Below, one piece after another: positions 11,257-29,125 of a DNA stretch of 64,000 nucleotides (position 1 is the stretch's first letter; every line of letters begins with the position of its first letter). The position numbers and the translations under genes were made by a program. The stretch is from assembly GCA_963751455.1 (NCBI GenBank), contig CAVVUN010000002.1:352001-416000 (forward strand), written 5' to 3'. The notes beneath the pieces were generated by a model. The model saw only the letters and a program-made list of their open reading frames with translations. It had not been told where the DNA came from and searched no databases. This DNA comes from Nitrospirota bacterium. Lineage in GTDB: Bacteria > Nitrospirota > UBA9217.

Positions 11257-11730
11257 TTACGGCTTATAGCACCAATGAAGATTACAATCGCTCCCACCCC
11301 AGTAAATCCTCACGACCTTTTCGTTAAAGCCGTCTGGGCAAGCAGCAGTATCGCCTTTATAGGGATTTGTTGTGTCTCCGTCGCAGCCATAACCTGTAAA
11401 ATACATTCCGCCAAAGCCATAGGTCGCACCGCTGATTGTTCCGCTGATGTTTGCGTTTCCCACCACAGCCAAATTCGTTTGTGAGCTATTCGTACCAACG
11501 CTAAGTTTACCGTTAACAGTACTGTTGCCGGTTACAGTCTCGCCGTTACTGGTAACTGTGCCGTTGACCTTTAAATTGCCATTGATCTCCGCTCTAGGCG
11601 TGGGGGCAGTACCCGTACCAACTCCGAAATTGCCGTATACAATCAAATCGCCGGGTGCCGCATAAATATTTTCCGTGGTAAGAACCAAAACCGCTAAAAC
11701 GACCATAACCATTAAGACGCTAATCTTCAT
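11257..11730 (-). CDS. Small secreted protein with a beta-helix-like stalk and a Cys-containing tip domain
   Basis: GGAGG RBS and signal peptide, NG-x-V repeats, and the C-terminal FGGMY..C..NPY.G..ACPDGF..C..WCY. Confidence 0.75.
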   Translation of the reverse strand: MKISVLMVMVVLAVLVLTTENIYAAPGDLIVYGNFGVGTGTAPTPRAEINGNLKVNGTVTSNGETVTGNSTVNGKLSVGTNSSQTNLAVVGNANISGTISGATYGFGGMYFTGYGCDGDTTNPYKGDTAACPDGFNEKVVRIYWGGSDCNLHWCYKP

Positions 11731-11808: not shown

Positions 11809-14064
11809 CTACCGAGCAACTGCCGTGGCGACGGCAGAGCCAGTGGACTCATTTCCTACCGAATCAACGGCGGATACAACATAGTAATACACTGTGCCTG
11901 CAGTAAGCCCGGAATGCGCGTAGTTCGTAACATTGCCAAATGGTATCTTTGTGCCGGTCAAGGGCGAGACATTTGACTGCGTTGACCAATAGAGATTGTA
12001 ATATGAAGCGCCCATAGAGGCTGTCCACGTCACGTTTATCATAGCTGAACCGACAGTTCCCGCCGTTGCAGCTAAACCGGACGGAGCTAAAATCGTTTCT
12101 CCTGCTGAAACAAGCGACTGAACGGGAATACTGCTGTCGGCCGTGCTGTTGTTCCCAAGTTCGCCTGAGTAATTATATCCCCACGCCCAGACCGTGCTGT
12201 CATTTCTGAGCGCTACGGTGTGAAGATGTCCCGCTGCTATTGCCGTTATGCCGGTAAGGTAGGTGCCGCAAGCGCCCGGTGAGGCACCGGCGCTGGCGCA
12301 GACCTTAACGGGAATAGTGCTATCGGTCGTGCTATTGTTCCCAAGCTGGCCAAAGCAGTTAGATCCCCACGCCCAGACCGTGCCGTCGTTCATAAGAGCC
12401 AGAGTGCGGTACAATCTCCCTGCTATTGCCGTTATGCCGGTAAGGTAGGTGCTGCAGGCTCCCGCTGATGCGCCTGCAGTTGCGCAGACCTGAACGGGAA
12501 TAGTGCTAAGAGCCGTGCTATTGTTTCCGAGTTCGCCATTATCATTATCTCCCCACGCCCAGACTGTCCCGTCATTCCTGAGCGCGATGGTGTAGAAATC
12601 TCCGGCTGCCAATGCGGTTATGCCCGTAAGGTACGTGCCGCAGGCGCCCGCTGATGCGCCTGCAGTGGCGCAGACCTGAACGGGAATACCGCTGTCAGTG
12701 GTCGTGCCGTTTCCCAGCTGCCCGTAGTTGTTGTATCCCCATGCCCAGACCGTGCCGTCATCTTTGAGCCCTACGGTGTGACCATATCCCCCAGCTATTG
12801 CCGTTATACCCGTAAGATACGTGCCGCAGGCGCCCGCCGATGCGCCGGCAGTCGCGCAGACCTGAATGGGAATAGCGCTGTTGGCCGTGGTATTGTTCCC
12901 AAGCTGACCATTGTAGTTTCCTCCCCAAGCCCAGAGTGTGCCGTCATTTTTGAGCGCGACAGTATGAAAATTTCCCCCTATTGCCGTTATGCCTGTAAGA
13001 TACGTGCCGCAGACGCCCGGTGAGTCGCCGGCAGTGGCGCAGGCCTGAACGGGAATAGTGCTGTCGTTCGTGCTGTTGTTCCCAAGCTCGCCACCTGAGT
13101 TATATCCCCACGACCAAACCGTGCCGTCATTCTTGAGTGCAACGGTCTGAAGAGCTTCCCCTGATATTGCCGTTATGCCGGTAAGATACGTGCCGCAGGC
13201 GCCCGCCGAGGCGCCGGCAGTGGCGCAGACCTGAACGGGAATAGTGCTATCGGACATACTGTTGTTCCCAAGCTGGCCAATCGAGTTAAATCCCCACATC
13301 CAGACCGCGCTGTCATTCTTGAGCGCGACAGTATAACCAGATCCCCCTGCTATTGCCATTACCACTCCAGGAGTGGCAGAAACGATGCTTGACTCCACAC
13401 TTTCCCCATAAGCGTTCACTGCTGTTACAACGTAGTAATATGTTGTTTTATTGGTAAGGCCTGTCTGCGTGTAGGGGCTTGTCGCGTTCACGATTTTCGT
13501 TCCGGTTGACTTTGTGACAGTGGACTTTGTTGACCAGTAGATGTTGTACGACGTCGCGCCCGTAACAGTGTTCCAGCTTATGATGTTCTGTCCATTGCCG
13601 GCTAATACGGTAAGACCGATCGGGGCAGATGGAAACACTTCTGCTGTTGCGGGCGTTGCGCTCACCTCACTCGACTCTTCGCTCTCCCCATTGCTATTCT
13701 CTGCCGTTACCACATAATAGAAAGTCGTATCGTTTGACAGGCCGGCATGGATGTATGGACTTGTTATATTGGAAATCGTTGTCCCTGCCGTATTTGTAAC
13801 ACCTGATGTTGTTGACCAGTAGATATTGTACGACGTTGCGGCGGTAACACTGTTCCAGCTTATGATATTCTGTTCATTACCCGCGGCTGCGATAACGCCG
13901 GTCGGAGCAGATGGAAGCGTTGTTCCTGAAGACGTTCCGCTGCTATGTCTCCCGCCCTTGCAAGCCGACAACAGCGCCAGGAATAAAACAGCACCAAGAA
14001 GCAGTTTGTAAGAGGCTTTCCCTGTGCATATCACAACGAACCTCCTTCTTATCACATGCACCAT
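11809..14064 (-). CDS. Lipoprotein with FN3 domains and an RCC1/BLIP-II beta-propeller
   Basis: Lipobox LSAC, two N-terminal FN3 domains and one C-terminal FN3 domain (YNIYW..YYYVVTA), and seven GTVWAWG.N..GQLG repeats. Confidence 0.9.
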   Translation of the reverse strand: MVHVIRRRFVVICTGKASYKLLLGAVLFLALLSACKGGRHSSGTSSGTTLPSAPTGVIAAAGNEQNIISWNSVTAATSYNIYWSTTSGVTNTAGTTISNITSPYIHAGLSNDTTFYYVVTAENSNGESEESSEVSATPATAEVFPSAPIGLTVLAGNGQNIISWNTVTGATSYNIYWSTKSTVTKSTGTKIVNATSPYTQTGLTNKTTYYYVVTAVNAYGESVESSIVSATPGVVMAIAGGSGYTVALKNDSAVWMWGFNSIGQLGNNSMSDSTIPVQVCATAGASAGACGTYLTGITAISGEALQTVALKNDGTVWSWGYNSGGELGNNSTNDSTIPVQACATAGDSPGVCGTYLTGITAIGGNFHTVALKNDGTLWAWGGNYNGQLGNNTTANSAIPIQVCATAGASAGACGTYLTGITAIAGGYGHTVGLKDDGTVWAWGYNNYGQLGNGTTTDSGIPVQVCATAGASAGACGTYLTGITALAAGDFYTIALRNDGTVWAWGDNDNGELGNNSTALSTIPVQVCATAGASAGACSTYLTGITAIAGRLYRTLALMNDGTVWAWGSNCFGQLGNNSTTDSTIPVKVCASAGASPGACGTYLTGITAIAAGHLHTVALRNDSTVWAWGYNYSGELGNNSTADSSIPVQSLVSAGETILAPSGLAATAGTVGSAMINVTWTASMGASYYNLYWSTQSNVSPLTGTKIPFGNVTNYAHSGLTAGTVYYYVVSAVDSVGNESTGSAVATAVAR
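12115..13350 (-). repeat. About 190-nt intragenic tandem repeats (seven RCC1 blades)
   Basis: A near-identical 63-64-aa unit containing VCATAGASAGACGTYLTGITAIA is visible at DNA level. Confidence 0.9.
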
Positions 14065-14232
14065 CTCTCGCTTAAGGTCCCTATATATCTATCTTGCACT
14101 TTCTTCTTGTGCGAGGTTCATCTGTTGTAATGCTGCCAAGCGCTGAACGCGTGCAATAAGTTCCTTGAAGACGCAGAGCGATAACGAAATCCCTATACGT
14201 TCATTGTGCAATTTTCTCACCGTTGCCGAAAA

Positions 14233-15213
14233 TTAGAAACGCGCAGCCAGAGTGAAGTTAAATGAGTTTGCGTCTCCAAAACCGAGGTTATTATCGGTCA
14301 GATGGAAACGGCCATAAGCACCGGTCAGAGAAAGCCGGCGAGTAAAAAAATACTCGAAATTCGCCGAATAAGTTCTACCTCCCGGGATAGCTGAATAAGT
14401 TCTACCTCCCGGAATAGCTAGTGACTTGCTTGAACTGTTTTCAAATCCTATTCCCGCACTCATGCGTCGGGTCCAGTAATAAACAAGCGACACCGATTCA
14501 GTAGTGTTTATTGGTTGTGCACTATGTACTGATCTCGTCTGGTTGATTCTTGATTGGAAACTTACGCTCCTGTCGCGGTTCAGTTGACGCACGTATTTTG
14601 AAACAACGCCATAGCCAAGTGTTTCCGAATTTAGAAAAAACATATCTGGATTGACATTAATCATATTTATCGCTTCTGCGTAATTATAGGCAATCTCGAT
14701 ACCTACTAGTAAGGAATTCGTAAGATAATTTCCGATGCTTATTCCTGACTTATACTCCCTAGTTTCCCCCTGGCCAGAGTCATAGAAACGAAGTCTAGAC
14801 TTGTCAAACGATATTGCAATGGCAAGAGGGAACCCAGGCCTTGCATAATTAAGCACGAATTGTTGCTCCGGTCCGGTCCCATGCCGTATTCCAGATCTGA
14901 AGTCCATGTGCTGCCAACTAAAAAAAGCGCTGCCGATATGCTCAAGAAATGCAGCTTCTGCATAAGGATGGTCTACAGTGCTTACGGGAGCAAAGAATAT
15001 TTCTCCTGAAAATCCGTACGAAATCGTCCTGTTATCTGTCGGCTCTTCCGGCATCAAAGAAATGAACGTTGCCCTGCTATCCCGAGAGTCAATCCATTGG
15101 TAAATGGTTGATATCTGCGCCTGGTACTGGTCCTCACCAAATGCTACGTTGATACAAAGCACAAACGAAATCAATGCAACCATGCTGCTCTTTTTTTTCA
15201 TGCGCTTCTCCAT
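14233..15213 (-). CDS. Putative outer-membrane beta-barrel (porin-like)
   Basis: Signal peptide, amphipathic strands, PYAEAAFL motif and a C-terminal Phe (FTLAARF). Confidence 0.7.
   Translation of the reverse strand: MEKRMKKKSSMVALISFVLCINVAFGEDQYQAQISTIYQWIDSRDSRATFISLMPEEPTDNRTISYGFSGEIFFAPVSTVDHPYAEAAFLEHIGSAFFSWQHMDFRSGIRHGTGPEQQFVLNYARPGFPLAIAISFDKSRLRFYDSGQGETREYKSGISIGNYLTNSLLVGIEIAYNYAEAINMINVNPDMFFLNSETLGYGVVSKYVRQLNRDRSVSFQSRINQTRSVHSAQPINTTESVSLVYYWTRRMSAGIGFENSSSKSLAIPGGRTYSAIPGGRTYSANFEYFFTRRLSLTGAYGRFHLTDNNLGFGDANSFNFTLAARF
14366..14419. repeat. 27-bp in-frame tandem duplication (AIPGGRTYS twice)
   Basis: gaataagttctacctcccggRatagct occurs at 14366 and 14393. Confidence 0.9.
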
Positions 15214-15615: not shown

Positions 15616-16154
15616 TCATTCACGTCCAATCGCGTCGTTAAACACTATATCCTTTGCACCCCAATCAGAATGATATTTACCCTGCTTCACATATCTGTGA
15701 AAACTCGAATATCTCCATTTCAATGGCGCTGTCGTTAAACCATGTTTAACGGGATTGTAATGTATGTATTCGACATGCCGTATATAATCCATATCATCTT
15801 GTGTCTGATGCTCCCAAAACGTCGCTGCCAGATATATTGTTCACGTTTCGCTGTCCTGCTCGCGCGTTGCCTGCTTTCAAACGGATCATGACAGATCCTT
15901 GTAAAATTGCTCTTGATCAGCATCCACCGCTTTGAATATTCATTGTCGCCTGGAGGCAATGTCCAAAGGCAATGAAGGTGATCCGGCAGCAACACGATTG
16001 CATCCACAATCAACGGATACTTCGCTTTGACCGTCTCAAATGCCTGCCTCAGGAGCCTCGGATTCTCACCCAGGCACAATATCTTTTTCCGCTCATACGT
16101 TACGACCGTAAAGAAAAAAGTTGCTCCTGGTGTTTGCGAACGTCTATAGCGCAT
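15616..16154 (-). pseudogene. REP-associated tyrosine transposase (RAYT, IS200/TnpA Y1-like), frameshifted
   Basis: MRYRRSQTPGATFFFTVVT and the HUH motif LPDHLH. One T is missing at about 15816; restoring it gives WQRRFWEH..YIHYNPVKHG..W.YSSFHRY up to a stop at 15616. Confidence 0.9.
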
Positions 16155-16182
16155 CTGTTTTCCATCATCACTCACAATATGT

Positions 16183-16211
16183 GTTGGGCAATAAACCTCT
16201 GCCCAACCTAC
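16183..16211 (-). repeat. REP element (GTAG plus hairpin) at the 5' flank of RAYT
   Basis: The reverse complement reads GTAG gttgggca...tgcccaac, inverted relative to the 15573 copy. Confidence 0.85.
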
Positions 16212-16218
16212 CGGCTGA

Positions 16219-16306
16219 TATTGCCATAACGACTCCAGGGAGTGGCAGAAATGATGCCTGTCCCCGAGCTCTCCCCATAAGCATTCACTGCTGTTACAAC
16301 GTGGTA
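16219..16306 (-). pseudogene. Fragment of an FN3-RCC1 paralog
   Basis: Diverged copy of 13351-13437 (YHVVTAVNAYGES..IISATP/GVVMAI) with a 1-nt indel. Confidence 0.8.
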
Positions 16307-16389
16307 TTTCCCTTGCCGCCATAATAATAATCGTAGCCAATGGACATAAGCCGGTGCTCATAATCAAAGGTATACCTGCTGCCATACTT

Positions 16390-16764
16390 TCAAGGTCCGA
16401 CCCCGCTCCCGCTTTTTTCCGCTTGCTTCTTGTTCTTACTGCCAACGAATGGAAGCCATGCATCTGTATTTCCAATCAGTATCATTTCGGGCTTTGTGCT
16501 TTTCTTCTTCGGCACGACTACTTCAACACCAATTGGAACACGTTTGAAATCCATCGCAATCCATTTGTAACTCTTTAAACCATTCTGACGGCTTTCAATT
16601 ATGGGAGCAGCAAATAATTTACTATCGATTCCATATTCAAAAAAATAATCTTGGTACATTTCATTTGCAATTTCGAACATCTCTTTATCTGAGCGATCAC
16701 TTTGAGTTGTGCAACCTGCAAGCAGAACAATTACTGCACTAATTTCAATAAGTTTATTCATCAT
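16390..16764 (-). CDS. Small lipoprotein, candidate toxin immunity protein
   Basis: Lipobox LAGC, AT-rich, and starts just after a toxin-like remnant. Confidence 0.65.
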   Translation of the reverse strand: MMNKLIEISAVIVLLAGCTTQSDRSDKEMFEIANEMYQDYFFEYGIDSKLFAAPIIESRQNGLKSYKWIAMDFKRVPIGVEVVVPKKKSTKPEMILIGNTDAWLPFVGSKNKKQAEKSGSGVGP

Positions 16765-17133: not shown

Positions 17134-17748
17134 TCAAGGTCTCTTCCCGGGAGTGAGAGTCCCTTCCTCACCCGAACCAATAAGATCCGCTGTTGGAATT
17201 AACCTGCAATTCTTTAGCTTATTCTTCTCAATAAACTCTTTCACTCTTTCTGTAACTATTATGAACTTCGGCAATGGCCATATAGTAAAAAAATCAGAGC
17301 CATCCCATTGCGATTCATCTACAAACAAACCTTTTCCAAAGTCTGTATATATTTTGTGACCGCATGCGGTGCACTCGTACTTTAACTTGATTTCTGATTT
17401 CGGATGTGCATTGCCGCCATTACCTATCACAATAAACTCCCACAACGGAGGCACCGCGTATTTGCTCCCTCTTCCAACCTTATCGACGCCAATAGGCTTC
17501 AGCGTGTAGCCGGTAAAACCTGCCTCTTCAAACAGTGTTGCCACTTCTTCCGTGATTATCCAATCACTCAGGAAAGTCGTTATAAAATGAGGTACCTTTG
17601 CAGACTTCAAGTCGATTTTTAAATCCCCGATTCTCGTGCCTGCACGCTGATGTCCTTTGTCGATAGGACATTTTATTCCTTCCCAGTCAGTTCCCTCAGC
17701 GAAATCTGCCCTACTATAATCTTTTATAGACAATTTATAAAAAATCAT
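17134..17748 (-). CDS. Immunity protein, SitI6/double-CXXCG- or Imm11-like
   Basis: CPIDKGH and CTACG motifs, and WDGSDFF..IIVTERVKEFI; lies directly downstream of the DUF2380-like toxin. Confidence 0.7.
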   Translation of the reverse strand: MIFYKLSIKDYSRADFAEGTDWEGIKCPIDKGHQRAGTRIGDLKIDLKSAKVPHFITTFLSDWIITEEVATLFEEAGFTGYTLKPIGVDKVGRGSKYAVPPLWEFIVIGNGGNAHPKSEIKLKYECTACGHKIYTDFGKGLFVDESQWDGSDFFTIWPLPKFIIVTERVKEFIEKNKLKNCRLIPTADLIGSGEEGTLTPGKRP

Positions 17749-17806: not shown

Positions 17807-19074
17807 CTATTTTAACCTTCGCCATGGTATGCCAAATTGTATCACCATTGTGTCAAGGTGTTCTAATATTTGTCTATCATTAGCAGTGGGGTTTTTCTCA
17901 AAAAACTGATACCAAGCTTTATTCCAGTTATTCTGCCCGGTGTGGATACCATATGGCTTAAAGATGTGAGCATCTGTTGCGAGGTTAACAGTGAATTCAT
18001 TTATGTTGAGACCTGCTTTTTCAAAATGTGGAGCAAGTGTTCTTGCCTGTGGTAAAAGATGGTGGACTTGATATCCCGGTATCCTTGCCATCTTCACCGG
18101 CATAAACATCAATGGCATTTCATAGAAAGAATGCGGTAACAGATAATTCGTAGTTTGAATGCCTAACCAATCAATACCAGCAGCTATGTAATTCCCAGCT
18201 TCCCAATTTTCGTCGCATCTACCCTTGATATAATCTCGAAATCCACTGAATAAGCCGCTTGACTCTCCTGTTATATCAGAATTATATCCTACTGTGCTGT
18301 TCCCCCATTCACTTCCCCAACTCAACGATGAATTGCCACTGTTTGAGTCATACGGCACAAAGCTACTTGATGAGTAGGGCGACGATAGCTGGTCATAATA
18401 ATTAAAATAACCATAATCCCTATTATAGGGGTCTGCATAAAAGGTAAGCGAGGTATCATATTCATCATACCCGCTGGGGTCAATATAGCGAAGCGGACTA
18501 TTCAAAACATAGCTGAACCGATTGAGCGCCTGTGGATTGGTAGGATCAGAGACTACTGGATTAGCGCTGATAAACCTTCCAATCGACGGATTATAGAACC
18601 GCGCATTGTAATTGTACAGCCCCGTCTCGGCATCAAACTCCTGTGAGGTGTACTTATGGTTCACGGACAGGAGTCCGTAATCGCTCAGTGTTTCTCCGAA
18701 AGGACGATAGCGGATGGTATACACTTTCTCCTTGGCGTAGCTTCCCGCCATGACCTCGAAATTCCCCATGGTCACGGTGCCCTGGCTGATTATGAGGCTG
18801 TTTACGAGCACGGAATTTTCGATCTGCTTCGTGTAGCCACAGTCGTATCCCCCCTTGATCGTTACGTTGACCGGGCGGTTGAGATTGAGTGGGATTGGCT
18901 CGGAGGTAAAGTTTACTGCGCGCGCCTGGATGATGTCGCCATTGACCGCTACATTATAGGCCACACGAAGCAACGAGTAATAATTATAGACCGATGTTCC
19001 GCGCAATATGCGGACAGGCGGTTTGGAACATGCGCTGTTCTGGATGGCCCCCGTCTGGGTCACGACCTGGGTGC
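17807..19074 (-). CDS. Orphan Rhs module: core fragment plus DUF2380/SitA6-like (HNH/AHH-type) toxin
   Basis: Repeats the main Rhs core up to DPSG. The C-terminal region has HHLLPQ..F..AGLNI..H..IH..WNKAW..F..NP.A. No convincing start or RBS. Confidence 0.85.
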
Positions 19075-20879
19075 GCCACCTTAATAGTTGCTATTCAATT
19101 TTCAAAGAACATCTGTGCACGATATCGTGGAAGTAACATTTGTGCCTATCGAATCCCAACCGCTTTGAGGAACTGGCCCATAATCAACTGAACTGCTAAA
19201 TAAACACATAGACATAAAAAGAAGCAATCATATATAACAATACTAAAACGCTGTTTATATTTCTCTGTTTCAAAGTTTCCATTTTATAATTCTCTTCGAT
19301 GATTTTGTATTTGTCGTGATAGACAAACGAAAAGTAAAGTATAATTGTGACCATGAATAACAGAAATAGCTGGACAACCTTGGGCAAGTGCTGAACATCA
19401 ACATTTATCAGACCTAGTTTTCGTAATAAAAGAACTATCGTAAGCACATTCAAAGACGCGAATATCGACACAATAAACATGGCCTTGTATTCAGGGACGT
19501 CTTCAGCTCCCCATTTTTTTAACTGCCACGTGTAAGTTCGGTAAAAAATATATTTATAAATATTCATCATATATCTCCTGGCACTCCCGGCATATTGTAT
19601 ATGACCGGAATGGGATACACTATTACAGGTGAAGGAGGACCTTCAAACCCACCCATCAAATCTGCGGCCCAGTAACCCACCCCGGCACCCACACCGAATG
19701 GCCCACCGATGAGTCCATAAAATCCAACACCCACATCCAGCGCTGATTTACTCGCTTTATCATAGTCACCCATTTGGTAAGCATTACGATACTGTCCGAC
19801 TGAGAGAAAAGTAGAAGACATAAAAGTCGCGTAGCCGCCCATCCTGAATAATTTTGCGTTTCTCAACGCAATAGAACGAGCGCTGGTCCATTGATTACCG
19901 CCCCAACGGTTAGAATACCATTTCGCGTTTATACCGCGCCAATAACCTTCAAATTCATTACTGTATTCGCCTGCCGCAGCCCCTGTACCTAATAGATTTA
20001 AAACACTCCCGGCAACGAAAGCAGTGTTATTATTCCACCGGCTTTCATTTTCATTACCAGTCGCGTCTGTGTTTGGCCAGGGTGTACTCGTATCATATCC
20101 GAAAGTGTAGGACGGCCAATTATTGCTTGCTAAGCTATGCAAGTCATACGGCACAGAGCTGTTTGATGAGTACGGAGAAGAGATCTGATCATAGTAATTG
20201 TAATAACCAGAACCACCCCAATCAGAATAGCCAATATTGTGCGAGTAAGCATAATAGGAGTCATATTCATCATACCCGCTGGGGTCAACATAGCGAAGCG
20301 GACTATTCAGGACATAGCTGTAACGGTTTAGCGCCTGAGGATTGGTAGGATCAGAGACTACCGGATTAGCGCTGATAAACCTTCCAATCGACGGATTATA
20401 GAGCCGGGCATTGTAGTTGTACAGCTCCGTATCGGCATCAAACTCCTGAGAGGTGTATTTATGGTTCACGGACAAGAGTCCGTAATCGCTCAGGGTTTCT
20501 CCAAAGGGACTGTAGCGGATGGTATACACTTTTTCCTTCGCATAGCTGCCCGCCATGACCTCGAAATTCCCCATTGTCACGGTGCCTTGACTGATTATAA
20601 GGCTGTTTACGAGCACGGAATTATCGATCTGCTGAGTGTAGCCGCAGTCGTATCCGCCCTTGATTGTTACGTTAACGGGGCGGTTAAGATTGAGGGGGAT
20701 TGGCTCGGACGTAAAGTTTACTGCACGGGCCTGGATGATGTCGCCATTGACCGCTACATTATAGGCCACACGAAGCAACGAGTAATAATTATAGACCGAT
20801 GTTCCGCGCAATATGCGGACAGGCGGCTTGGAACATGCGTTGTTCTGGATGGCTCCGGTCTGGGTCACAACCTGGGTGC
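18456..20879. repeat. 619-bp diverged direct repeat of the Rhs core (18456-19074 vs 20261-20879)
   Basis: Offset is 1805 nt at both ends, and the differences inspected are mostly synonymous. Confidence 0.95.
19196..19570 (-). CDS. Membrane immunity protein candidate for the main Rhs toxin
   Basis: About three hydrophobic helices, AT-rich, and the start overlaps the Rhs stop. Confidence 0.75.
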   Translation of the reverse strand: MMNIYKYIFYRTYTWQLKKWGAEDVPEYKAMFIVSIFASLNVLTIVLLLRKLGLINVDVQHLPKVVQLFLLFMVTIILYFSFVYHDKYKIIEENYKMETLKQRNINSVLVLLYMIASFYVYVFI

Positions 20880-23800
20880 TGCCGAGATGGTCGCCGTGGT
20901 AGTAAAGAACATCGGACCCGGTCTTCGTTGCTATGCGCGTGTCTCCGGCGAAGATGGCCTTGGCGCACGTATTCAATACGCACTCGTACAGTTTCCCAAG
21001 ATAGATGTTTTCGCCGCTCGAAGTAGATTTCTTGACCCGCGTACCCGCGCCATCGTACACGAAACTTGTGGTCGCGTTGTTTAGAGTGACGGACTGCGGC
21101 ATGTTGTCATAATCATACGTAATCGATCTGTAAACCGTTGAACCAGTGCTTTCTGTTATCAAATTCCCGTTCAGATCGTAGGAATACGTCATGCCGGTTG
21201 TAATGTTAGATTTAACAGCATGGGGATGGAGACCCGTGCTGTCAGTGTGGTCATAAGTGATGCCTTCTTTATAGCTGATATTACCAGTTTGGGAATAGTT
21301 ATAGAAAAGGTCGCTCACGCCTCCAAAGCTGGCGGCGTTCGGGGTCTGTGCATGCTGAATGCGGCCCAGACCGTCATACTCAAACCACTGAGTCATTGAG
21401 TAATCGACACTGTCGACAATGTTCTTAATATTTCCCCCTGGGTAATAATCATAGGCGAGATTAATGAGCGTCTGGTTCGTAGTCCCGGTGACGATTGATT
21501 GTAGGTCGTAGTTTGACGTGCTATACATGTAATTCGTAATAATGCCGTTGCCGTATGTAATCGTCCCGGGCTGGCCTATTGCATTATACCCGTTGTACGC
21601 CGCGTAATTAACAGCGGTGCCGGTTACAGACGAAAGGACGCCGGCAGTATAGGCATAGCTGACTGTTTCGTTATCAGGATAAGTAAGGCTTGCAGGCCTT
21701 CCGAGCGCATCATAGGTCGTCTTGAACGTATAAGAGGGAGTGACGTTGACGACTGATTTTGTTGTTTGGGATGTTCTGCCCAGCATGTCATAGTAATACT
21801 TTGTGGTGCCCGAGGCGTCGGACATTATTGAGAGTCTACCGACAGGATATGTGGTAGCTGCGTCATCTGGTGCGACATCGTAGGTGTAGTGAACGTCGGT
21901 CATGTTTACCGGTCCGTTTTTCGGATACTCTTTCCAGAGGAGCCTGTTCAATGCATCATAATGGAAGTATATGGGGTTCGTGCCCAAGCTATTAGCGTTA
22001 GCGTCCGTTTGGGAGGTAAGATTGTTGTTGGCGTCAAAGGAGTAGCTCCATTGGCCCATATCCGGATCTTTCATGTAATATTTTCTGCGGAGTGAATCGT
22101 AGCGCATTTCTGTTTGGTTGCCTTCGGCGTCCGTTACATAGCGGAGATTGCCGAGCACATCGTACTGGTATATGGTCGTCGCATAGGGCGCTCCTTGATC
22201 GGTCGTGCAGGAGGTGAATGCTGTACCAGGATTATATTCATCGACCTGTATAAGGCGGCCGAAGACATCTCTTGTTTCGCGCTTCTTATTGCCATCAGGG
22301 TCGATCCACGCCGTAACGCCATTCAGGTAGCAGGACTTTACAATCGTTCCATCAGAATTGGTTTTCTGCGTAACCCGGCCAACGGCATCATACTTTAACA
22401 CCTGTGTAGGATAGCTTGCAAGACCCTCGAAATAGGGGAGAGAAGAGATATAAACAGCGCCTCGAGCATCATAGGTTCTGTCGGTGCTGATCACTTTGTT
22501 GTCGGGTGCTTGGGAAAGGGTCTTGATGGTTCTTCCGAAGCCATCAAAGAAGACTTTTTTCCAGATAGTAGCGCCGGTTGAATAATCGATGGTTGAAGTG
22601 ACGGTTACATGCTGCTGTCCGACCGACCCAAAGCTATTATAAGAATATGACACCGTCCCATTTGAAGATGCAATCCCGTATGGATCAATTACCTTTGTTT
22701 TGCGGCCCAGAGCGTCATATTCGGTAGTGGTAGCGACGAGATTAGGGTCAATTACACTCGCCACCTGGCCATACAGTCCTTTGTCGGTCGATGCATTGAT
22801 CCCATAATATTGAATCGTTGTCCATTGGTCTTTGTCGTTTGTTTTACCTATAGGGTAAGTGTTTGTTGCTGTGTCATAGAAAATACGGGATTTTTTTCCA
22901 TTGCCATCGCGTGTGCAGACGAGGTTGCCGTATCCGTCCGAATCATAGGACATATTAATTTCGGGATCTGTTGCTCCTGTGGGCTTAGAATTGAGCCATC
23001 CGACGATTGTAGTAACATTACCGTGGGTTGGAATCTGGTTCGTGTACCCGGCCGGCATGGAACGTGTTTCACAGTCAGACGGATCATCATAATAGTATGT
23101 AGTAGAAGAGACTAGTTGTCCAGAAGAATCATATATCTTCTCGTACTTGGGCAGCCCGACTATGTAATTTTCGGTACTGTCCGTCGTGAAAGCCCTGGCT
23201 ATAGTCCGGTAAGGCGCTGATGCATTTGCAGAATTATACTCTTGTTCAGATGTTACGTTGCCATAGCCATCGTAGGAATAGTTTGTTTTTTTGTTCTGGC
23301 CGCTTGTGGAATCGTTGCACGTTGTCGTTGTGCTGCCGTCGCAAATATAGGTCTTAGTTGTATCAACTGCATTAAAATATCCGCCATTAGCGTTTATAAA
23401 GGAGTGGTAAATGATTGCCGATTCACTGTATATTGATCCGTTAGCATCAGTTACTCGTGTGTGATATGGCTTACCCTTTAAATCGGGTACTGGGGGATAG
23501 CATGCACATGGTTTGCCGGGTTCTGGTGAGCACGGCGTACAAGGTAAACCGGTAAGCACATTATAGTATTCAATCCCCTGGTGGAACCAAGTCTCAGTTA
23601 TTTTCCGCTCGTCATATGGGTCAGCAGGGCCGGTGACTGTTACATGATTGAAGCCTCGGAAGTCGCGCTCGGTGATGTGGTAGTAGCCACCTTCGTAGCC
23701 ATATTTTGTCTCGGCAAGATTGCCATTGCCGTCATCTCTTATAACAGAGCTGACGGTTTGAACTGAAAAAGGAAGCTGCACATTCGAATATTGTGTAGAT

Positions 23801-25986
23801 GGCGTATAGCTAATTCCCACGCTACCACCGATACTATTGAAAATCTTTATGAGGAGATTGCTCGCTTGGTCCGGATTGTCCGGATTGTCTGCCGGCCCAA
23901 CAGCTGTCGCAACCACCGGAATTCCCTGTGACGAAAACAAGTATCGGCCGCTGAGGAAAACAACATCAGTTCTGCCGTCGCCATTGAAATCGCCGATATG
24001 ATACCGTTTGATATTGTCGTTGCCCCATGTCATTGTGCCCCACGGCGATGAAAAGGTTTTAAAATTGCAACCGGCAGAAAGAGCTACCGAGAGGTTTCCA
24101 GATTGATCTATGAAAAGAATATCGGTCATGCCGTTTCCATCATAATCAGCAAACTTATACCGAGTAATATCGCCATTGCCCATTGAAATGGAAGGCATCG
24201 CAGTGATAAAAGCAGAACCCGTAGAGAATTCCGTTTGTATATTGCCGTTAGAGTCAATATAGATAATATCCGCCTTGCGGTCTCCATTAATATCACCAAC
24301 AGCGTACTGAGCCGGAATATCTCCATGACCCGAAGTTGCCCAGGGGTTTGAACTAACAACAAAACCTATTTCTGAATATGTGGCAACTTGAAGATTCCCA
24401 TCGCTGCCAATATAAAGAACATCTGCCTTTCCATCACCATTGAAGTCCGCAACTCTATACCTCGCCTCTTCACTATTACCCAATTTTGACGCAAACGTAT
24501 CAGAAACAAAACCGGCTGTTGAAGATCCTGTAGACAAATAAACATTCAACGTACCAGTCTGTACAGATAAAATATCAGCCTTTCCATTTCCGTCAAAATC
24601 TGCAACAAAATTCTGTTCAGGATTATATGCATTCACTGTAAGCCATTGTTCAACTGATCCAAAATTGGCGCCCGTAGATAGTGCAACATCAAACACACGC
24701 ACACCACTTATATAATCACGGTAGGATAAAAAAATATCTGCTTTACCATCTCCATCAAAATCTGCTGGATAAATTATCGTGTTGTGGGTATCGCCGATCC
24801 TGCCCCAAAGAGTCGTTATAAAATCAGATCCGGTCGATGAACCAACCGTCGCATATTCATTTCCCTGTGAATTAAGATAATCAATCCTAAGAATATCGCT
24901 GCGTCCATTTCCGTCAAAATCACTAATCTTATAATGACGTGACTCGACAAGATGGCCGAGACTTGATTTCGTACTGACGATAAAACCGGTGCTCTCCGGT
25001 GAGTAATCCATAATTGTTTCAGGCAATGGGCTCGTGCCATCTTTGCCTAATTGCTGGATGCCTCTTAAAAGAGTCCGAAAAGTATTGGCACTCTCTCTAT
25101 AGTTAAATTTATACGATCGAACGAGATTATTATTGGCAGTTATATCTATCCGGTCAAGGCGATACACGGTCTTGACCCCAAAATTCGGCGTGTATATTGT
25201 CACAGCATCCTGGCGTGCGCCGTCATCTCTTACGAACGTTATTCTGTTACTCGACATAATCGACGTGCTAGGCCATGTATAGTCTATATGATCCAGATAA
25301 ATATGTCCTTGATCTTTAAAATAATAATATTTTATATAATTGCCATTCGCGTCCATTTCTTGATCAAGGCACCATTTGAATACTTTACTCGCGTCGGCCG
25401 CAATATTATGGGCCGGATCGTCCGGTTGATCCTGTCTTGACTCGGAACTCTGGCCGAAGAAATAATGCGTGCCTGACTTGTCAATGACTTCCCAGGACGT
25501 AGGTCTTCCTGTTGTACTGTCCGTGGAAACCTTAAATTTTAAAAAACCAGTTTCTATTGTAGCGCGGTATTCGCCGTTTCCGATATTCGTCAGTCCTATA
25601 GTGTTTCCACCGGTTTTGAAAACGTAGCTATTTTTATCATAATTAACGCCGTTCTTTGTGCTACGCTCTATGGAGTCCACTTCAAGCTGCCATCCTAATC
25701 CAAGCCAACTATTTGACTGGTTGTTTTTATAAGTCAGGGTAAGTTTCGGTTCCATTCCGTTGCGTCCTGTGGGGACAAGAATGGGCATCAAATGTTTCAT
25801 CGCTCCCGTAAATAGGTCGGGAGTTGCTCCATCAAATTCTGAGGATGCATTATTGTCTTCGATTATTGATGATTTAAAAGATAGAGATGAATTGTCGTCA
25901 GCATCTTCTTCTCCAAATGCTGGAAAACGGAAGACTGTAGATATGAGAAGGATAAATAGGGAGAAAAGACAAAGCAGCTTCTTCAT
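19567..25986 (-). CDS. Secreted SpvB/FG-GAP/YD-repeat Rhs polymorphic toxin
   Basis: Signal peptide, SpvB-like GRNGMEPKLTLTY..WLGLGW, several DFDGDGKAD repeats, REFRGF-like ERDFRGF, YD repeats, the core YHGDHLGS..YNYNARLYNP.IGRF..NSPLRYVDPSG, and a variable C-terminus. Confidence 0.93.
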   Translation of the reverse strand: MKKLLCLFSLFILLISTVFRFPAFGEEDADDNSSLSFKSSIIEDNNASSEFDGATPDLFTGAMKHLMPILVPTGRNGMEPKLTLTYKNNQSNSWLGLGWQLEVDSIERSTKNGVNYDKNSYVFKTGGNTIGLTNIGNGEYRATIETGFLKFKVSTDSTTGRPTSWEVIDKSGTHYFFGQSSESRQDQPDDPAHNIAADASKVFKWCLDQEMDANGNYIKYYYFKDQGHIYLDHIDYTWPSTSIMSSNRITFVRDDGARQDAVTIYTPNFGVKTVYRLDRIDITANNNLVRSYKFNYRESANTFRTLLRGIQQLGKDGTSPLPETIMDYSPESTGFIVSTKSSLGHLVESRHYKISDFDGNGRSDILRIDYLNSQGNEYATVGSSTGSDFITTLWGRIGDTHNTIIYPADFDGDGKADIFLSYRDYISGVRVFDVALSTGANFGSVEQWLTVNAYNPEQNFVADFDGNGKADILSVQTGTLNVYLSTGSSTAGFVSDTFASKLGNSEEARYRVADFNGDGKADVLYIGSDGNLQVATYSEIGFVVSSNPWATSGHGDIPAQYAVGDINGDRKADIIYIDSNGNIQTEFSTGSAFITAMPSISMGNGDITRYKFADYDGNGMTDILFIDQSGNLSVALSAGCNFKTFSSPWGTMTWGNDNIKRYHIGDFNGDGRTDVVFLSGRYLFSSQGIPVVATAVGPADNPDNPDQASNLLIKIFNSIGGSVGISYTPSTQYSNVQLPFSVQTVSSVIRDDGNGNLAETKYGYEGGYYHITERDFRGFNHVTVTGPADPYDERKITETWFHQGIEYYNVLTGLPCTPCSPEPGKPCACYPPVPDLKGKPYHTRVTDANGSIYSESAIIYHSFINANGGYFNAVDTTKTYICDGSTTTTCNDSTSGQNKKTNYSYDGYGNVTSEQEYNSANASAPYRTIARAFTTDSTENYIVGLPKYEKIYDSSGQLVSSTTYYYDDPSDCETRSMPAGYTNQIPTHGNVTTIVGWLNSKPTGATDPEINMSYDSDGYGNLVCTRDGNGKKSRIFYDTATNTYPIGKTNDKDQWTTIQYYGINASTDKGLYGQVASVIDPNLVATTTEYDALGRKTKVIDPYGIASSNGTVSYSYNSFGSVGQQHVTVTSTIDYSTGATIWKKVFFDGFGRTIKTLSQAPDNKVISTDRTYDARGAVYISSLPYFEGLASYPTQVLKYDAVGRVTQKTNSDGTIVKSCYLNGVTAWIDPDGNKKRETRDVFGRLIQVDEYNPGTAFTSCTTDQGAPYATTIYQYDVLGNLRYVTDAEGNQTEMRYDSLRRKYYMKDPDMGQWSYSFDANNNLTSQTDANANSLGTNPIYFHYDALNRLLWKEYPKNGPVNMTDVHYTYDVAPDDAATTYPVGRLSIMSDASGTTKYYYDMLGRTSQTTKSVVNVTPSYTFKTTYDALGRPASLTYPDNETVSYAYTAGVLSSVTGTAVNYAAYNGYNAIGQPGTITYGNGIITNYMYSTSNYDLQSIVTGTTNQTLINLAYDYYPGGNIKNIVDSVDYSMTQWFEYDGLGRIQHAQTPNAASFGGVSDLFYNYSQTGNISYKEGITYDHTDSTGLHPHAVKSNITTGMTYSYDLNGNLITESTGSTVYRSITYDYDNMPQSVTLNNATTSFVYDGAGTRVKKSTSSGENIYLGKLYECVLNTCAKAIFAGDTRIATKTGSDVLYYHGDHLGSTQVVTQTGAIQNNACSKPPVRILRGTSVYNYYSLLRVAYNVAVNGDIIQARAVNFTSEPIPLNLNRPVNVTIKGGYDCGYTQQIDNSVLVNSLIISQGTVTMGNFEVMAGSYAKEKVYTIRYSPFGETLSDYGLLSVNHKYTSQEFDADTELYNYNARLYNPSIGRFISANPVVSDPTNPQALNRYSYVLNSPLRYVDPSGYDEYDSYYAYSHNIGYSDWGGSGYYNYYDQISSPYSSNSSVPYDLHSLASNNWPSYTFGYDTSTPWPNTDATGNENESRWNNNTAFVAGSVLNLLGTGAAAGEYSNEFEGYWRGINAKWYSNRWGGNQWTSARSIALRNAKLFRMGGYATFMSSTFLSVGQYRNAYQMGDYDKASKSALDVGVGFYGLIGGPFGVGAGVGYWAADLMGGFEGPPSPVIVYPIPVIYNMPGVPGDI

Positions 25987-26102: not shown

Positions 26103-28499
26103 TTAATTATTTGACTCGTTACCATTCCTGTTCGTGCACTGGCTCCTGCCCGGCTGCAGGTCCCAGTACCCGAGGGAGTAATACTGTTCGTTGATATAGG
26201 ATGCAATTTCATTGGCCTTGGTGAAGTTGCCTTCGAGGAAGAGATCCAGAACAATGTGCAATGCCTCTCCCGGATTGGTGAATTCCGCGGTGTCTGCGGA
26301 GATAGAAGGGTCTGTTCCATCGCTTGTGTAAATCAGGCTGTTGGAATAACTGCTGTTATAGAAGACGTTGCTTTCTTGATAAGCATCGCTTGCGCTGCGT
26401 GAACCGTCGAGTTCAATGCCCACAGAAAACGTGCCGCCGGCGGCCGCTGTGAGGTCCGTAAAAAATCCGTTGCCAAGGCTGACATTGACGTTTGAATTCT
26501 GTGCGAGAAGCGTAGTGTCTGCATAGAGAGCGCCGCTGCCTGCGCCATCGAATATGGTCTGCGCAGAAGCGATTTGCGGATCGTCTTTCAGGGCGTGTAT
26601 CTTGATGAAGAAATCTCCAGTATCCGGGCTGCTGGAGCCCGAGTAGATCACGAGGTCGGCGCTTACGATTGCTGCACCTTGGGGTATCGATTGCAGGTTA
26701 AAGGTGTAAAAGGGGCGGGTTTCGATCAGTCCATGCATGTAATAATTATCCGTATTGCTTTGATAGGTATACTCGTATTTACTCGCATACGAGTATGAGG
26801 TTAAAAATTGATCATAATAGTCCTGCTGGTACTGAACTCCGTTCTCCTGTGTCTCATAGAAATCCCGGTACACGTATCCTCCGGTGGCGTTTATGGTGAC
26901 CGTTTTCCGGGCTCCATCGATTCCGAAATAGGTGAGGTTCAAGGAAGTCGTTATTGCCCCGCTCCCGATATTGCGCGCGAGAGCGCGGATCTGGCGAACT
27001 GCTGCCTGGGAATGTTTATACGAAGCCAGGTCGGTTCCCGTCATATCTTGTTGAACCATTACTGAAACGGGTAAATAAGTTGGACTTGGCTGATAAGTGG
27101 CACTATTTCCGGAAAGTTCGTATATAAGTGTGGGATTAAAAACGTAAACACCAGGTGACGTGTCGCACGATATCGTGATGGCGGCAACGACTGTGACGGT
27201 CCCGCCGGGTTGAACCGATGTGGACGCGGTCCACGGCGCTCCGTAGTTTCCTGCATCGGTAAATTCTCCGCTCCATCCTGCCGGGAGATTTGCTATTTTC
27301 AGTGAACCCGATTTTGTTATATATGCCGTGCTGCTGCCGGTGTTCATAAGCGTTATATAGGCGAGGAACGTGCCGCCGGGGAGCATAGATGTCGGATTAA
27401 CAACGGCGGACGTAATTTCGGCGGACAGCGGCGGGCTGAGCGCTCCTACCAGAAGCTGCGTTACAGCCTGACCAAGGGTGCCGGATATAGCGGAGATGTT
27501 CTGGCCGTCCATTGCATAGACTATGCCTGTCCCTTGCGCACCGATATTCTCCGGGGGTTCCCCGGTCCCGAAGAAAAGAGTGGTGCTGTTCGCAACCATC
27601 GACAAGACTGCGCCGGAACCTGAATCCGCCTGTTCCCACACGAGCGCCATCGCGCCGTTGTCCCATCGGTATAGCTGCTCTTTGTGTCGATTGTCGACCG
27701 TCGTTGCCATGCCGATATACAAGTTGTCACCGTATGTTTGCATTGACCGGATGGTCGAAAAGTCAATTCCCGAAGTTTGTTGAGTAAAATTGATCCCGTC
27801 AGTCATTTGATATATCGAACTATCGAAAGAACCTGCAAAAAGCTTGGTCTGAAATACTTCCATGGCTTGAATGCCGTTTCCGCTCGCGTAGCTCACTTGT
27901 TCAATTCCAGTCCCGTCAAAGCGGGCGATGAAGTCAGTATTTGAGTCGCCGATATAAAGGTAGTCGTTCCATGGATAAAGAGTTTTGAACCCCTGCCATC
28001 CTGATGAAAGTGAACTGGAATCCGCGACTTTGGTCCATTGCATGTCTCCGTCGAATCTGAAAAGCTGTCCGACACCCGCGTTAACGTTTCGAGCGGAGGC
28101 ATAGAGCTGTTCCTTGTATACGGCAAATTTTTCTACTTTAGCATCAAAAGGCGATGAAACGGGACTCCATGAAGTGCCCCCAGCATACCGGTAGATAATG
28201 GAAAGTCCGTCCCACGCATTCTGGGAGGCTGCGGCATAAAGCTGTCCTTGAAAGATTATGATGGCATCTACCGATACACCCAATTCGCCTGAGATAGCTT
28301 CCCATGCAGCCACGATGCTCTCGGCGTTTTCTTGATATCTGTATACTTTACCGGGCTTAGAGGTGGCGGCATAAAGACTGCTCTGCTGAGATGAGGAATC
28401 GCTGATCAGGGTCGGGGAAGAGGTTGTGCAGGAAAGGAGTCCGACAGAAATGAGCACAATGATGAACGTTGCGAGCAGTGTATATTTATTGGTGCGCAT
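26103..28499 (-). CDS. Large lipoprotein with a beta-propeller-like N-terminus and Ig-like domains
   Basis: Lipobox LLSC, repeated F/Y.G.LY.G blades, and FNLQSIPQGAAIVSADL (DNRLRE/CBM96-like, tentative). Lies directly upstream of Rhs. Confidence 0.75.
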   Translation of the reverse strand: MRTNKYTLLATFIIVLISVGLLSCTTSSPTLISDSSSQQSSLYAATSKPGKVYRYQENAESIVAAWEAISGELGVSVDAIIIFQGQLYAAASQNAWDGLSIIYRYAGGTSWSPVSSPFDAKVEKFAVYKEQLYASARNVNAGVGQLFRFDGDMQWTKVADSSSLSSGWQGFKTLYPWNDYLYIGDSNTDFIARFDGTGIEQVSYASGNGIQAMEVFQTKLFAGSFDSSIYQMTDGINFTQQTSGIDFSTIRSMQTYGDNLYIGMATTVDNRHKEQLYRWDNGAMALVWEQADSGSGAVLSMVANSTTLFFGTGEPPENIGAQGTGIVYAMDGQNISAISGTLGQAVTQLLVGALSPPLSAEITSAVVNPTSMLPGGTFLAYITLMNTGSSTAYITKSGSLKIANLPAGWSGEFTDAGNYGAPWTASTSVQPGGTVTVVAAITISCDTSPGVYVFNPTLIYELSGNSATYQPSPTYLPVSVMVQQDMTGTDLASYKHSQAAVRQIRALARNIGSGAITTSLNLTYFGIDGARKTVTINATGGYVYRDFYETQENGVQYQQDYYDQFLTSYSYASKYEYTYQSNTDNYYMHGLIETRPFYTFNLQSIPQGAAIVSADLVIYSGSSSPDTGDFFIKIHALKDDPQIASAQTIFDGAGSGALYADTTLLAQNSNVNVSLGNGFFTDLTAAAGGTFSVGIELDGSRSASDAYQESNVFYNSSYSNSLIYTSDGTDPSISADTAEFTNPGEALHIVLDLFLEGNFTKANEIASYINEQYYSLGYWDLQPGRSQCTNRNGNESNN

Positions 28500-29125
28500 G
28501 GTCCCTCCGATCAAAGCAAGATTGGCACATTATTTTTATCCTTTTTAAAGAATGGGCGGCAAGAAAGGGCAGAATTTTGCCGTTTCTACAAAACTAATAC
28601 TTTTGTTTGAATAAGTATAAGAATAGTTAGAATTAAAAAATTATTCAAGAACTAATTCGGGTTATTTTAAGGGTATTGCACAGTGTTGCGATAAGTTGCT
28701 AATGAAGAATAAAGGATAAACAAATAAGGAGGTTGGACGATTTAAGGTGCTAATTCCGGATCATTCTTGTCCTGTAGTTTATCTAAACTTTGAATTTTAT
28801 GTGTCAAATTTTATGTGAGGGAAACAGGGAACATCTTAGAAGGTCTTTCTCCTCGCACCCAGCCTGCACGTCCCAACCTGGCGAACCACTCCGCGAGGGA
28901 AGTGATTCCAATTCAGATCTAGTTGCCTCCGCAAGCGATCACCGTTTATTCTGCTATATGTTTTAAAACACTTATGCACTTATGCATTTATTTTATCCGT
29001 CAGTTTGTGGCAGGCCCCTCTGTGTTTCGCCGAAGAAGTTTCTCTCGAGGTTTCGAGTCTGTTGAACCGGCGGTATAGCGCCTGCTCAAGCTCCGGAAGC
29101 AGCAACGGCTAAACCCTCTGATGTC

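Follow-up and report, generated by a model that had tools for sequence, protein, structure and literature searches.

Toxins of the Rhs and TcC type carry an aspartyl autoprotease with two catalytic aspartates, and the consequences of replacing the first of them have been described for several members. In the available portions of the respective reports, cleavage and killing are blocked in RhsA by the D1324N change (PMC8765631) and abolished in Tse5 by D1141A (PMC10684867), a double Asn mutant of Tse15 stays uncut (PMC11461821), and residues D643, N653 and N654 of TccC2 are described as not critical for cleavage (PMC7861908). Animal teneurins, as far as the accessible part of the source goes, are uncleaved and hold their tail outside the shell. 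No report of natural variants lacking the first aspartate was found in searches of an open-access library, and the accessible part of one recent preprint (bioRxiv 10.1101/2025.05.08.652813) contains nothing on catalytic residues.

The 64,000-nt stretch of DNA analyzed here (the window; contig CAVVUN010000002.1 of the Nitrospirota bacterium assembly GCA_963751455.1, positions 352,001 to 416,000) encodes two copies of an Rhs core, both of which carry asparagine in place of the first aspartate. All coordinates refer to the window unless a contig is named, and the two toxin genes, their immunity genes, the upstream lipoprotein gene and the features within them lie on the reverse strand.

Organization of the locus

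The main gene (19567–25986) encodes an Rhs polymorphic toxin of 2139 aa, in which a hydrophobic N-terminus, likely a Sec signal peptide, is followed by SpvB, FG-GAP repeats, TcdB_toxin_midN, RHS repeats (PF05593, E 2.3e-22), an Rhs core (TIGR03696, scoring 68.5 bits where 32.5 is the cut-off) and a C-terminal toxin, as delineated with Pfam and NCBIfam. A structural model of residues 1460–1915 matches the shells of Rhs, TcB-TcC and teneurin proteins; its pLDDT falls below 50 at model residues 418–428 and 433–456, which makes the active-site geometry unusable. The C-terminal part (19570–20274, 235 aa) comprises a Ser/Tyr-rich linker of ~75 aa and a toxin domain without a named family: the tail gave no Pfam or NCBIfam match, and its nearest clusters, at 0.92–0.94, are unnamed clusters from Bacteroidota. 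Since the adjacent immunity gene (19196–19570) is of the Bfi1 family (NF053699, E 2e-15, 56.9 bits, under the cut-off of 100), the toxin domain is likely Bfe1-like.

Downstream lies an orphan module (17807–19063, 418 aa) composed of insert, core, linker and a SitA6/DUF2380-like toxin, with a likely SitI6-like double-CXXCG immunity gene for this toxin (17134–17748) assigned from a weak TIGR02264 match (E 0.02) and from its position. The layout of polymorphic toxins is present, with two unrelated tails on one core, immunity-like genes behind both, each scoring under its curated cut-off, and the orphan module. The immunity genes behind the tails indicate bacterial targets, and from its sequence features the main protein is likely secreted and likely antibacterial.

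Upstream of the main gene is a likely lipoprotein of 803 aa (26103–28514). Its paralogues, ~50% identical (C15:124485-126707 and 1093740-1095962), adjoin the two further loci that this Rhs subfamily has in the genome, both Asp-bearing, and lie there on the opposite strand; the lipoprotein is likely an accessory gene. The suggestion made in the original prediction, that the altered core may need a partner, gains no support from this neighborhood: no neighbor is annotated as a protease, the upstream lipoprotein has counterparts beside Asp-bearing paralogues as well, and no Asn-specific partner was seen among the neighbors scanned with Pfam and NCBIfam. After the orphan immunity gene, the window contains a REP-associated tyrosine transposase and a likely lipoprotein of 124 aa without a family (15735–16764) and, farther downstream and in the same orientation, an RCC1-repeat/fn3 protein together with a porin-like gene (11809–15213).

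Within the core, a domain of 109 aa (20527–20853) is inserted after the HLGS motif, as seen from the sequence, the alignment of relatives and fold comparison. According to its model, the insert likely represents the first rungs of a parallel beta-helix: its best fold match is a pectin methylesterase (Z 7.0, a middling value; rmsd 2.6; 80 aligned residues), with many beta-helix entries ranked below, and its Atlas lead is DUF1565, at 0.86. No Foldseek match with E below 0.001 and no Pfam or NCBIfam family was obtained for it. Elsewhere in this genome, the inserted domain stands at the end of two proteins and at the start of a third (C3:85530-87896, C1:18920-20155 and C9:225957-229505), and it occurs in two or three copies within unrelated large proteins.

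Asparagine at the first catalytic position

In the main copy, the codon at 20365–20367 reads AAT and encodes Asn1874; in the orphan copy, the equivalent AAT codon at 18560–18562 encodes Asn168. Both lie within the motif GRFISANP, and an intact DPSG (20275–20286 in the main copy) follows 27 residues downstream in each, so that the second catalytic aspartate, Asp1901, and Gly1904 of the DxxG signature are kept. In the alignment, Asn1874 stands opposite Asp663 of YenC2 and Arg1861 opposite Arg650, the two YenC2 residues that we take to be catalytic. Arg1861 (20404–20406), the essential and conserved arginine of the catalytic pocket, is intact; it precedes Asn1874 by 13 residues, is a different residue from the arginine of GRF, and occupies a column holding Arg in 490 of the 510 related cores described below, with 16 gaps. 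An equal spacing of 13 residues separates R2103 and D2116 of BiTLP in the accessible part of its description (PMC13018210).

Codon reading and alignment agree, as originally predicted, that both copies have Asn at the first autoprotease aspartate and retain DPSG. Judged from the alignment, it is the asparagine itself, and no other aspartate, that occupies the catalytic position. The asparagine is known from one residue in one assembly, and the claim is limited accordingly.

Rarity and origin of the asparagine

A set of 510 distinct related cores was picked by likeness to the query, from the best 120 of 251 and the best 120 of 418 protein matches, the best 150 of 105,158 representatives, 71 of 651 metagenome loci and 29 loci of relatives. 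At the first site, these cores hold Asp in 495 rows, a gap in 13 and Asn in two, one of the latter being a misaligned row that truly has Asp and the other a decayed fragment. This genome encodes 11 Rhs cores, nine of them with Asp and only the two described here with Asn; one Asp-bearing paralogue lies at C15:1096271-1102708. Scanning 185,579 genomes for the Asn-Pro pattern, in which Pro was required to follow Asn, yielded 19 stretches (seven in short or stopped frames, six in long intact genes and six ambiguous), and with Asp in the pattern, 401 genomes from this phylum contained 20 matches, which puts the Asn-Pro frequency at roughly 0.2% as a ratio taken across two different genome sets. 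The possibility that SANP is common in Rhs cores, against which the original prediction had asked to be checked, is ruled out by the core set, the genome-wide scans and the other cores of this genome alike.

The nearest relatives, 55–61% identical, all have Asp, and the metagenome scan returned no close relative (best identity 65%; 71 loci kept of 651). In a quick tree of 66 rows (P0100 dropped; P0351 and P0356 unlabelled, though both carry Asn), the main protein falls within an Asp-bearing, insert-bearing clade (SH-aLRT 100 and 96), and on this topology the asparagine of the locus has one origin inside that clade. A co-occurrence of the asparagine with the inserted domain, also proposed for checking, is ruled out: all nine relatives with the insert (9/9) keep Asp.

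The orthologue in the nearest relative (L228–L229; G011:C10:52422-58782) keeps Asp and is split between two frames, of 969 and 1114 aa; behind it, too, lies a homologue of the window gene at 11257–11730. In one Actinomycetes MAG, a pair of paralogous Rhs cores (L032 and L048) has Asn at this site in an identical six-base context, which may reflect either a parallel case or a methylation effect. A Pseudomonadota MAG contains a long intact Rhs gene with Asn at the site (L036), its motif resembling that of the actinobacterial clade described next.

A separate clade with asparagine in Actinobacteria

Five of the six intact long Asn genes of the pattern scan come from Kribbella or Actinokineospora, and a homology search started from one of them gave an actinobacterial SpvB/FG-GAP/RHS clade (P0349–P0356; loci L039, L042, L044, L046 and L047) with Asn in 8/8 members, SH-aLRT support of 96 and Asp-bearing sisters. 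The tail of these proteins is a C39 peptidase, and Asp is kept in five C39-bearing relatives. Core dN is lower than dS in 10/10 pairs, and no obvious immunity gene was seen at the loci inspected. A shared origin with the asparagine of this locus is ruled out by the quick tree, in which the starred branches force two separate changes. The domain order is identical to that of the main protein and Asn-Pro is found at the first site in all eight members; unlike this locus, the clade has a separate origin and a fixed C39 peptidase tail, and it is without the insert and without an obvious immunity gene. The presence of Asn in 8/8 members across genera means that an Asn core can persist. The clade is a parallel and not a proof, because it is non-polymorphic and lacks an obvious immunity gene; as a lead, it is sturdier than this locus.

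Divergence and constraint of the two copies

The segment shared by the two copies (20270–20879, 92% identical to 18465–19074) aligns gap-free along 610 nt, of which 48 differ; the 197 codons compared show 38 synonymous and nine non-synonymous changes (dS 0.345, dN 0.020). The dN/dS ratio between the copies is 0.058 overall, 0.092 in the core and 0.037 in the insert, and the core alone shows six non-synonymous changes over 194 sites against 16 synonymous changes over 58 sites. A dS of 0.345 combined with these ratios (overall and core) rules out a core that is old and dead. General decay of the main gene is ruled out as well: its 6.4 kb contain no stop or frameshift, and it deviates at 7/121 conserved columns (rank 49 of 60), which makes it no outlier. 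Strong constraint since the split means that the asparagine is either old and tolerated or recent and spread by conversion.

A run of 98 identical nt (20729–20826, equal to 18924–19021; 32 codons in the insert; p ~0.003) is a likely conversion tract and suggests that gene conversion between the copies does occur. The Asn codon lies inside a 40-nt stretch identical in both copies, the second-longest identical run; with 12 codons (p 0.17), this run is unremarkable. The codon after Asn differs between the copies, so that a conversion tract would end ≤5 nt from the site. Weighing these sequence patterns, an older origin of the asparagine is clearly, if not overwhelmingly, favoured over recent conversion. 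The two copies are non-independent witnesses of the change because of their shared descent and because the codon sits in the identical 40-nt stretch.

Predicted loss of self-cleavage and competing readings

Self-cleavage is probably lost in this protein, because the first-site mutants of RhsA and Tse5 fail to cleave. The published single mutants, the rarity of Asn and the alignment all favor the original prediction that the toxin may not self-cleave, as a prediction for this protein. In the reading that we place first, at somewhat under even confidence, the asparagine arose before the copies split and is tolerated. With Asn at the first site, no cut would be made after DPSG and the toxin domain would stay tied to the shell. 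Since the asparagine would predate the split, the core would have stayed useful with it, while two different toxin-immunity pairs were kept. The tail would act tethered, displayed on the Ser/Tyr-rich linker of ~75 residues behind DPSG, or would be released through a cut made in this linker by an outside protease. The weakest step is that the toxin would work without autoprocessing: blocked cleavage removes killing in RhsA and Tse5, which leaves a working tethered toxin without a tested bacterial precedent. The linker is also present in the Asp-bearing relatives P0002, P0003 and P0005; it therefore did not arise with the asparagine and would be permissive at most. Counting against an old and tolerated asparagine are the conversion-like run, the decayed Asn cores (7/19) and the absence of a close relative with Asn.

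A wider proposal, which we hold only tentatively, is that Rhs cocoons switched off their autoprotease at least twice by an Asp-to-Asn change and stayed functional, as a polymorphic toxin with a tethered or externally cut tail here and with a fixed C39 peptidase in actinobacteria. If true, toxin release by self-cleavage would not be universal, and these proteins would either mark a bacterial stage on the way to the teneurins, which stay uncleaved, or rely on Asn-Pro cleavage. Whether an Rhs shell can work uncleaved would be readily testable on a natural core that is under constraint yet lacks the first Asp, and the actinobacterial clade gives named species for such a test. Should the asparagine prove recent or artefactual, the locus would amount to a commonplace disarmed toxin or to a mistake in the assembly, of little importance.

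The strongest competitor, though rather unlikely, is a recent knock-out, in which the asparagine arose lately in one copy and spread by gene conversion, the toxin being disarmed and the low dN/dS reflecting the past. In its favor, the shared segment does contain the conversion-like 98-nt run, and the identical stretch of 40 nt that holds the Asn codon ranks second in length. Asp is present in every near relative, decay is frequent among Asn cores, and with nine Asp cores the genome could dispense with the locus. However, the tract would need to be ≤40 nt long and to end ≤5 nt from the site, the length of the run is explicable without conversion (p 0.17), and the main gene shows neither a stop or frameshift in its 6.4 kb nor an outlying load of deviations.

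Less probable again is that the tail is still released by another chemistry: a slow cut through Asp1901 and Arg1861, the use of Asp1879 (20350–20352) of the SDP motif as a stand-in, or breakage of the Asn-Pro bond as at the NPTH site of FlhB and SpaS, where self-cleavage proceeds by an asparagine mechanism. Asp1879 lies 22 residues before Asp1901, which equals the spacing of D1324 and D1346 in RhsA, and is kept in the five proteins compared; yet its column is variable, Asp filling just 191 of the 495 rows that have a residue there, which makes it a weak stand-in. It further falls in a loop of low confidence (pLDDT below 50 at model residues 418–428), and D643 of TccC2, which we infer to be equivalent in placement, is dispensable for cleavage in the available part of that report. 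The role originally offered to the SDP aspartate is thus poorly sustained. A role for the Ser that stands for the second Asn of NNP was set aside as well, N653 and N654 of TccC2 being not critical in that report. Pro follows Asn here and in all eight actinobacterial members, although this Pro was a requirement of the pattern scan that found the clade. Autocleavage at NPTH does exist, as described in the accessible part of its report (PMC4620466), and the continued pairing of toxin and immunity suggests toxin release. On the other side, the tested first-site mutants retain the second Asp and the Arg and are nevertheless uncut in the available portions of the reports, and the model fails to place these side chains.

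An artefact, in which one context-dependent sequencing or polishing error struck the shared 40-nt context in both copies, is improbable. Uncorrected indels mean that single-base findings in this genome need care: frame changes occur in 13/231 orthologues over about 262 kb, including fusA (C15:~994,650) and rplA (C15:~982,150). The Asn site is a would-be GATC word, and in the accessible part of one preprint nanopore G-to-A artefacts cluster at methylation motifs, GATC accounting for 9/28 false calls (bioRxiv 10.64898/2026.01.14.699587). Methyltransferase domains encoded in the genome comprise one of the C5 type and several of the N6/N4 type; for the Dam family, only a partial match of 68 residues was found. 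No sequencing run is listed for the assembly, which weighs neither for nor against an artefact. The uncorrected indels are mostly 1-base insertions (11/14), unlike nanopore errors. In the 231 orthologues shared with the relative G011, Asp-to-Asn differences are no commoner in this context (5/214) than elsewhere (51/2276), none occurs in the closer context (0/41), and no motif among 906 tested survived correction. Genome-wide, the 10-base context is present 30 times in its Asp form, and the main gene retains 14 in-frame Asp codons in GATC words. The original argument that two copies speak against sequencing error holds only in part, since context errors or conversion can strike both copies and the assembly has indels; even so, the direct tests showed no such bias. 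Restoration of Asp in the product by A-to-I editing or by deamidation would be unlikely, as the context is not the TadA motif and Asn-Pro resists deamidation.

Very unlikely, finally, are internal promoters that would make the tails as toxin-antitoxin modules for which autocleavage no longer matters, as in Salmonella, where rhs tails are expressed from a core promoter with a CTG start (PMC7043789, in its accessible part): both copies have a TGTACA-17-TATAAT site shortly before the Asn codon (20423–20395 and 18618–18590) and an in-frame CTG (main) or TTG (orphan) follows 19 codons after it, but such sites are not enriched (31 found against 29.5 expected), TATAAT is a by-product of Tyr-Asn codons that is found in 6/11 other such cores, a ribosome-binding site is not evident, the constraint on the insert (dN/dS 0.037) is left unexplained, and Bfe1 kills when sent to the periplasm, according to the available portion of its report (PMC6692515).

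Comparison with known systems

The main protein resembles the TcB-TcC cocoon (TccC3, YenC2) in combining SpvB, FG-GAP, TcdB_toxin_midN, RHS repeats and the core in one chain and in the fold of its shell. It differs in that its immunity genes suggest bacterial targets and that the first Asp is lost; a search of the genome for a TcA partner with PF18276 gave no match, the control genomes likewise giving none. With teneurins and the bacterial TLP it shares the YD shell. Unlike teneurins, it showed no FN-plug or NHL domain in Pfam and NCBIfam searches and has SpvB, FG-GAP and TcdB_toxin_midN instead; the bacterial TLP, as described in the accessible part of its report (PMC13018210), keeps both aspartates and cleaves, whereas here one residue is lost.

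The closest likeness is to the Rhs/YD toxins (RhsA, Tse5, Tse15 and RhsP), with which the locus shares an Rhs core scoring over the TIGR03696 cut-off, the arginine, the second Asp in DPxG, a variable tail, a downstream immunity gene and an orphan module. Unlike in these toxins, the N-terminal half is TcB-like and carries a likely Sec signal in place of PAAR/VgrG export, a 109-aa insert is present in the core, and the first Asp is naturally Asn, the very change used in the laboratory to block cleavage. Judged by its sequence, the protein is an Rhs polymorphic toxin, yet one in which the aspartyl autoprotease is not intact, the first catalytic Asp being Asn in both copies.
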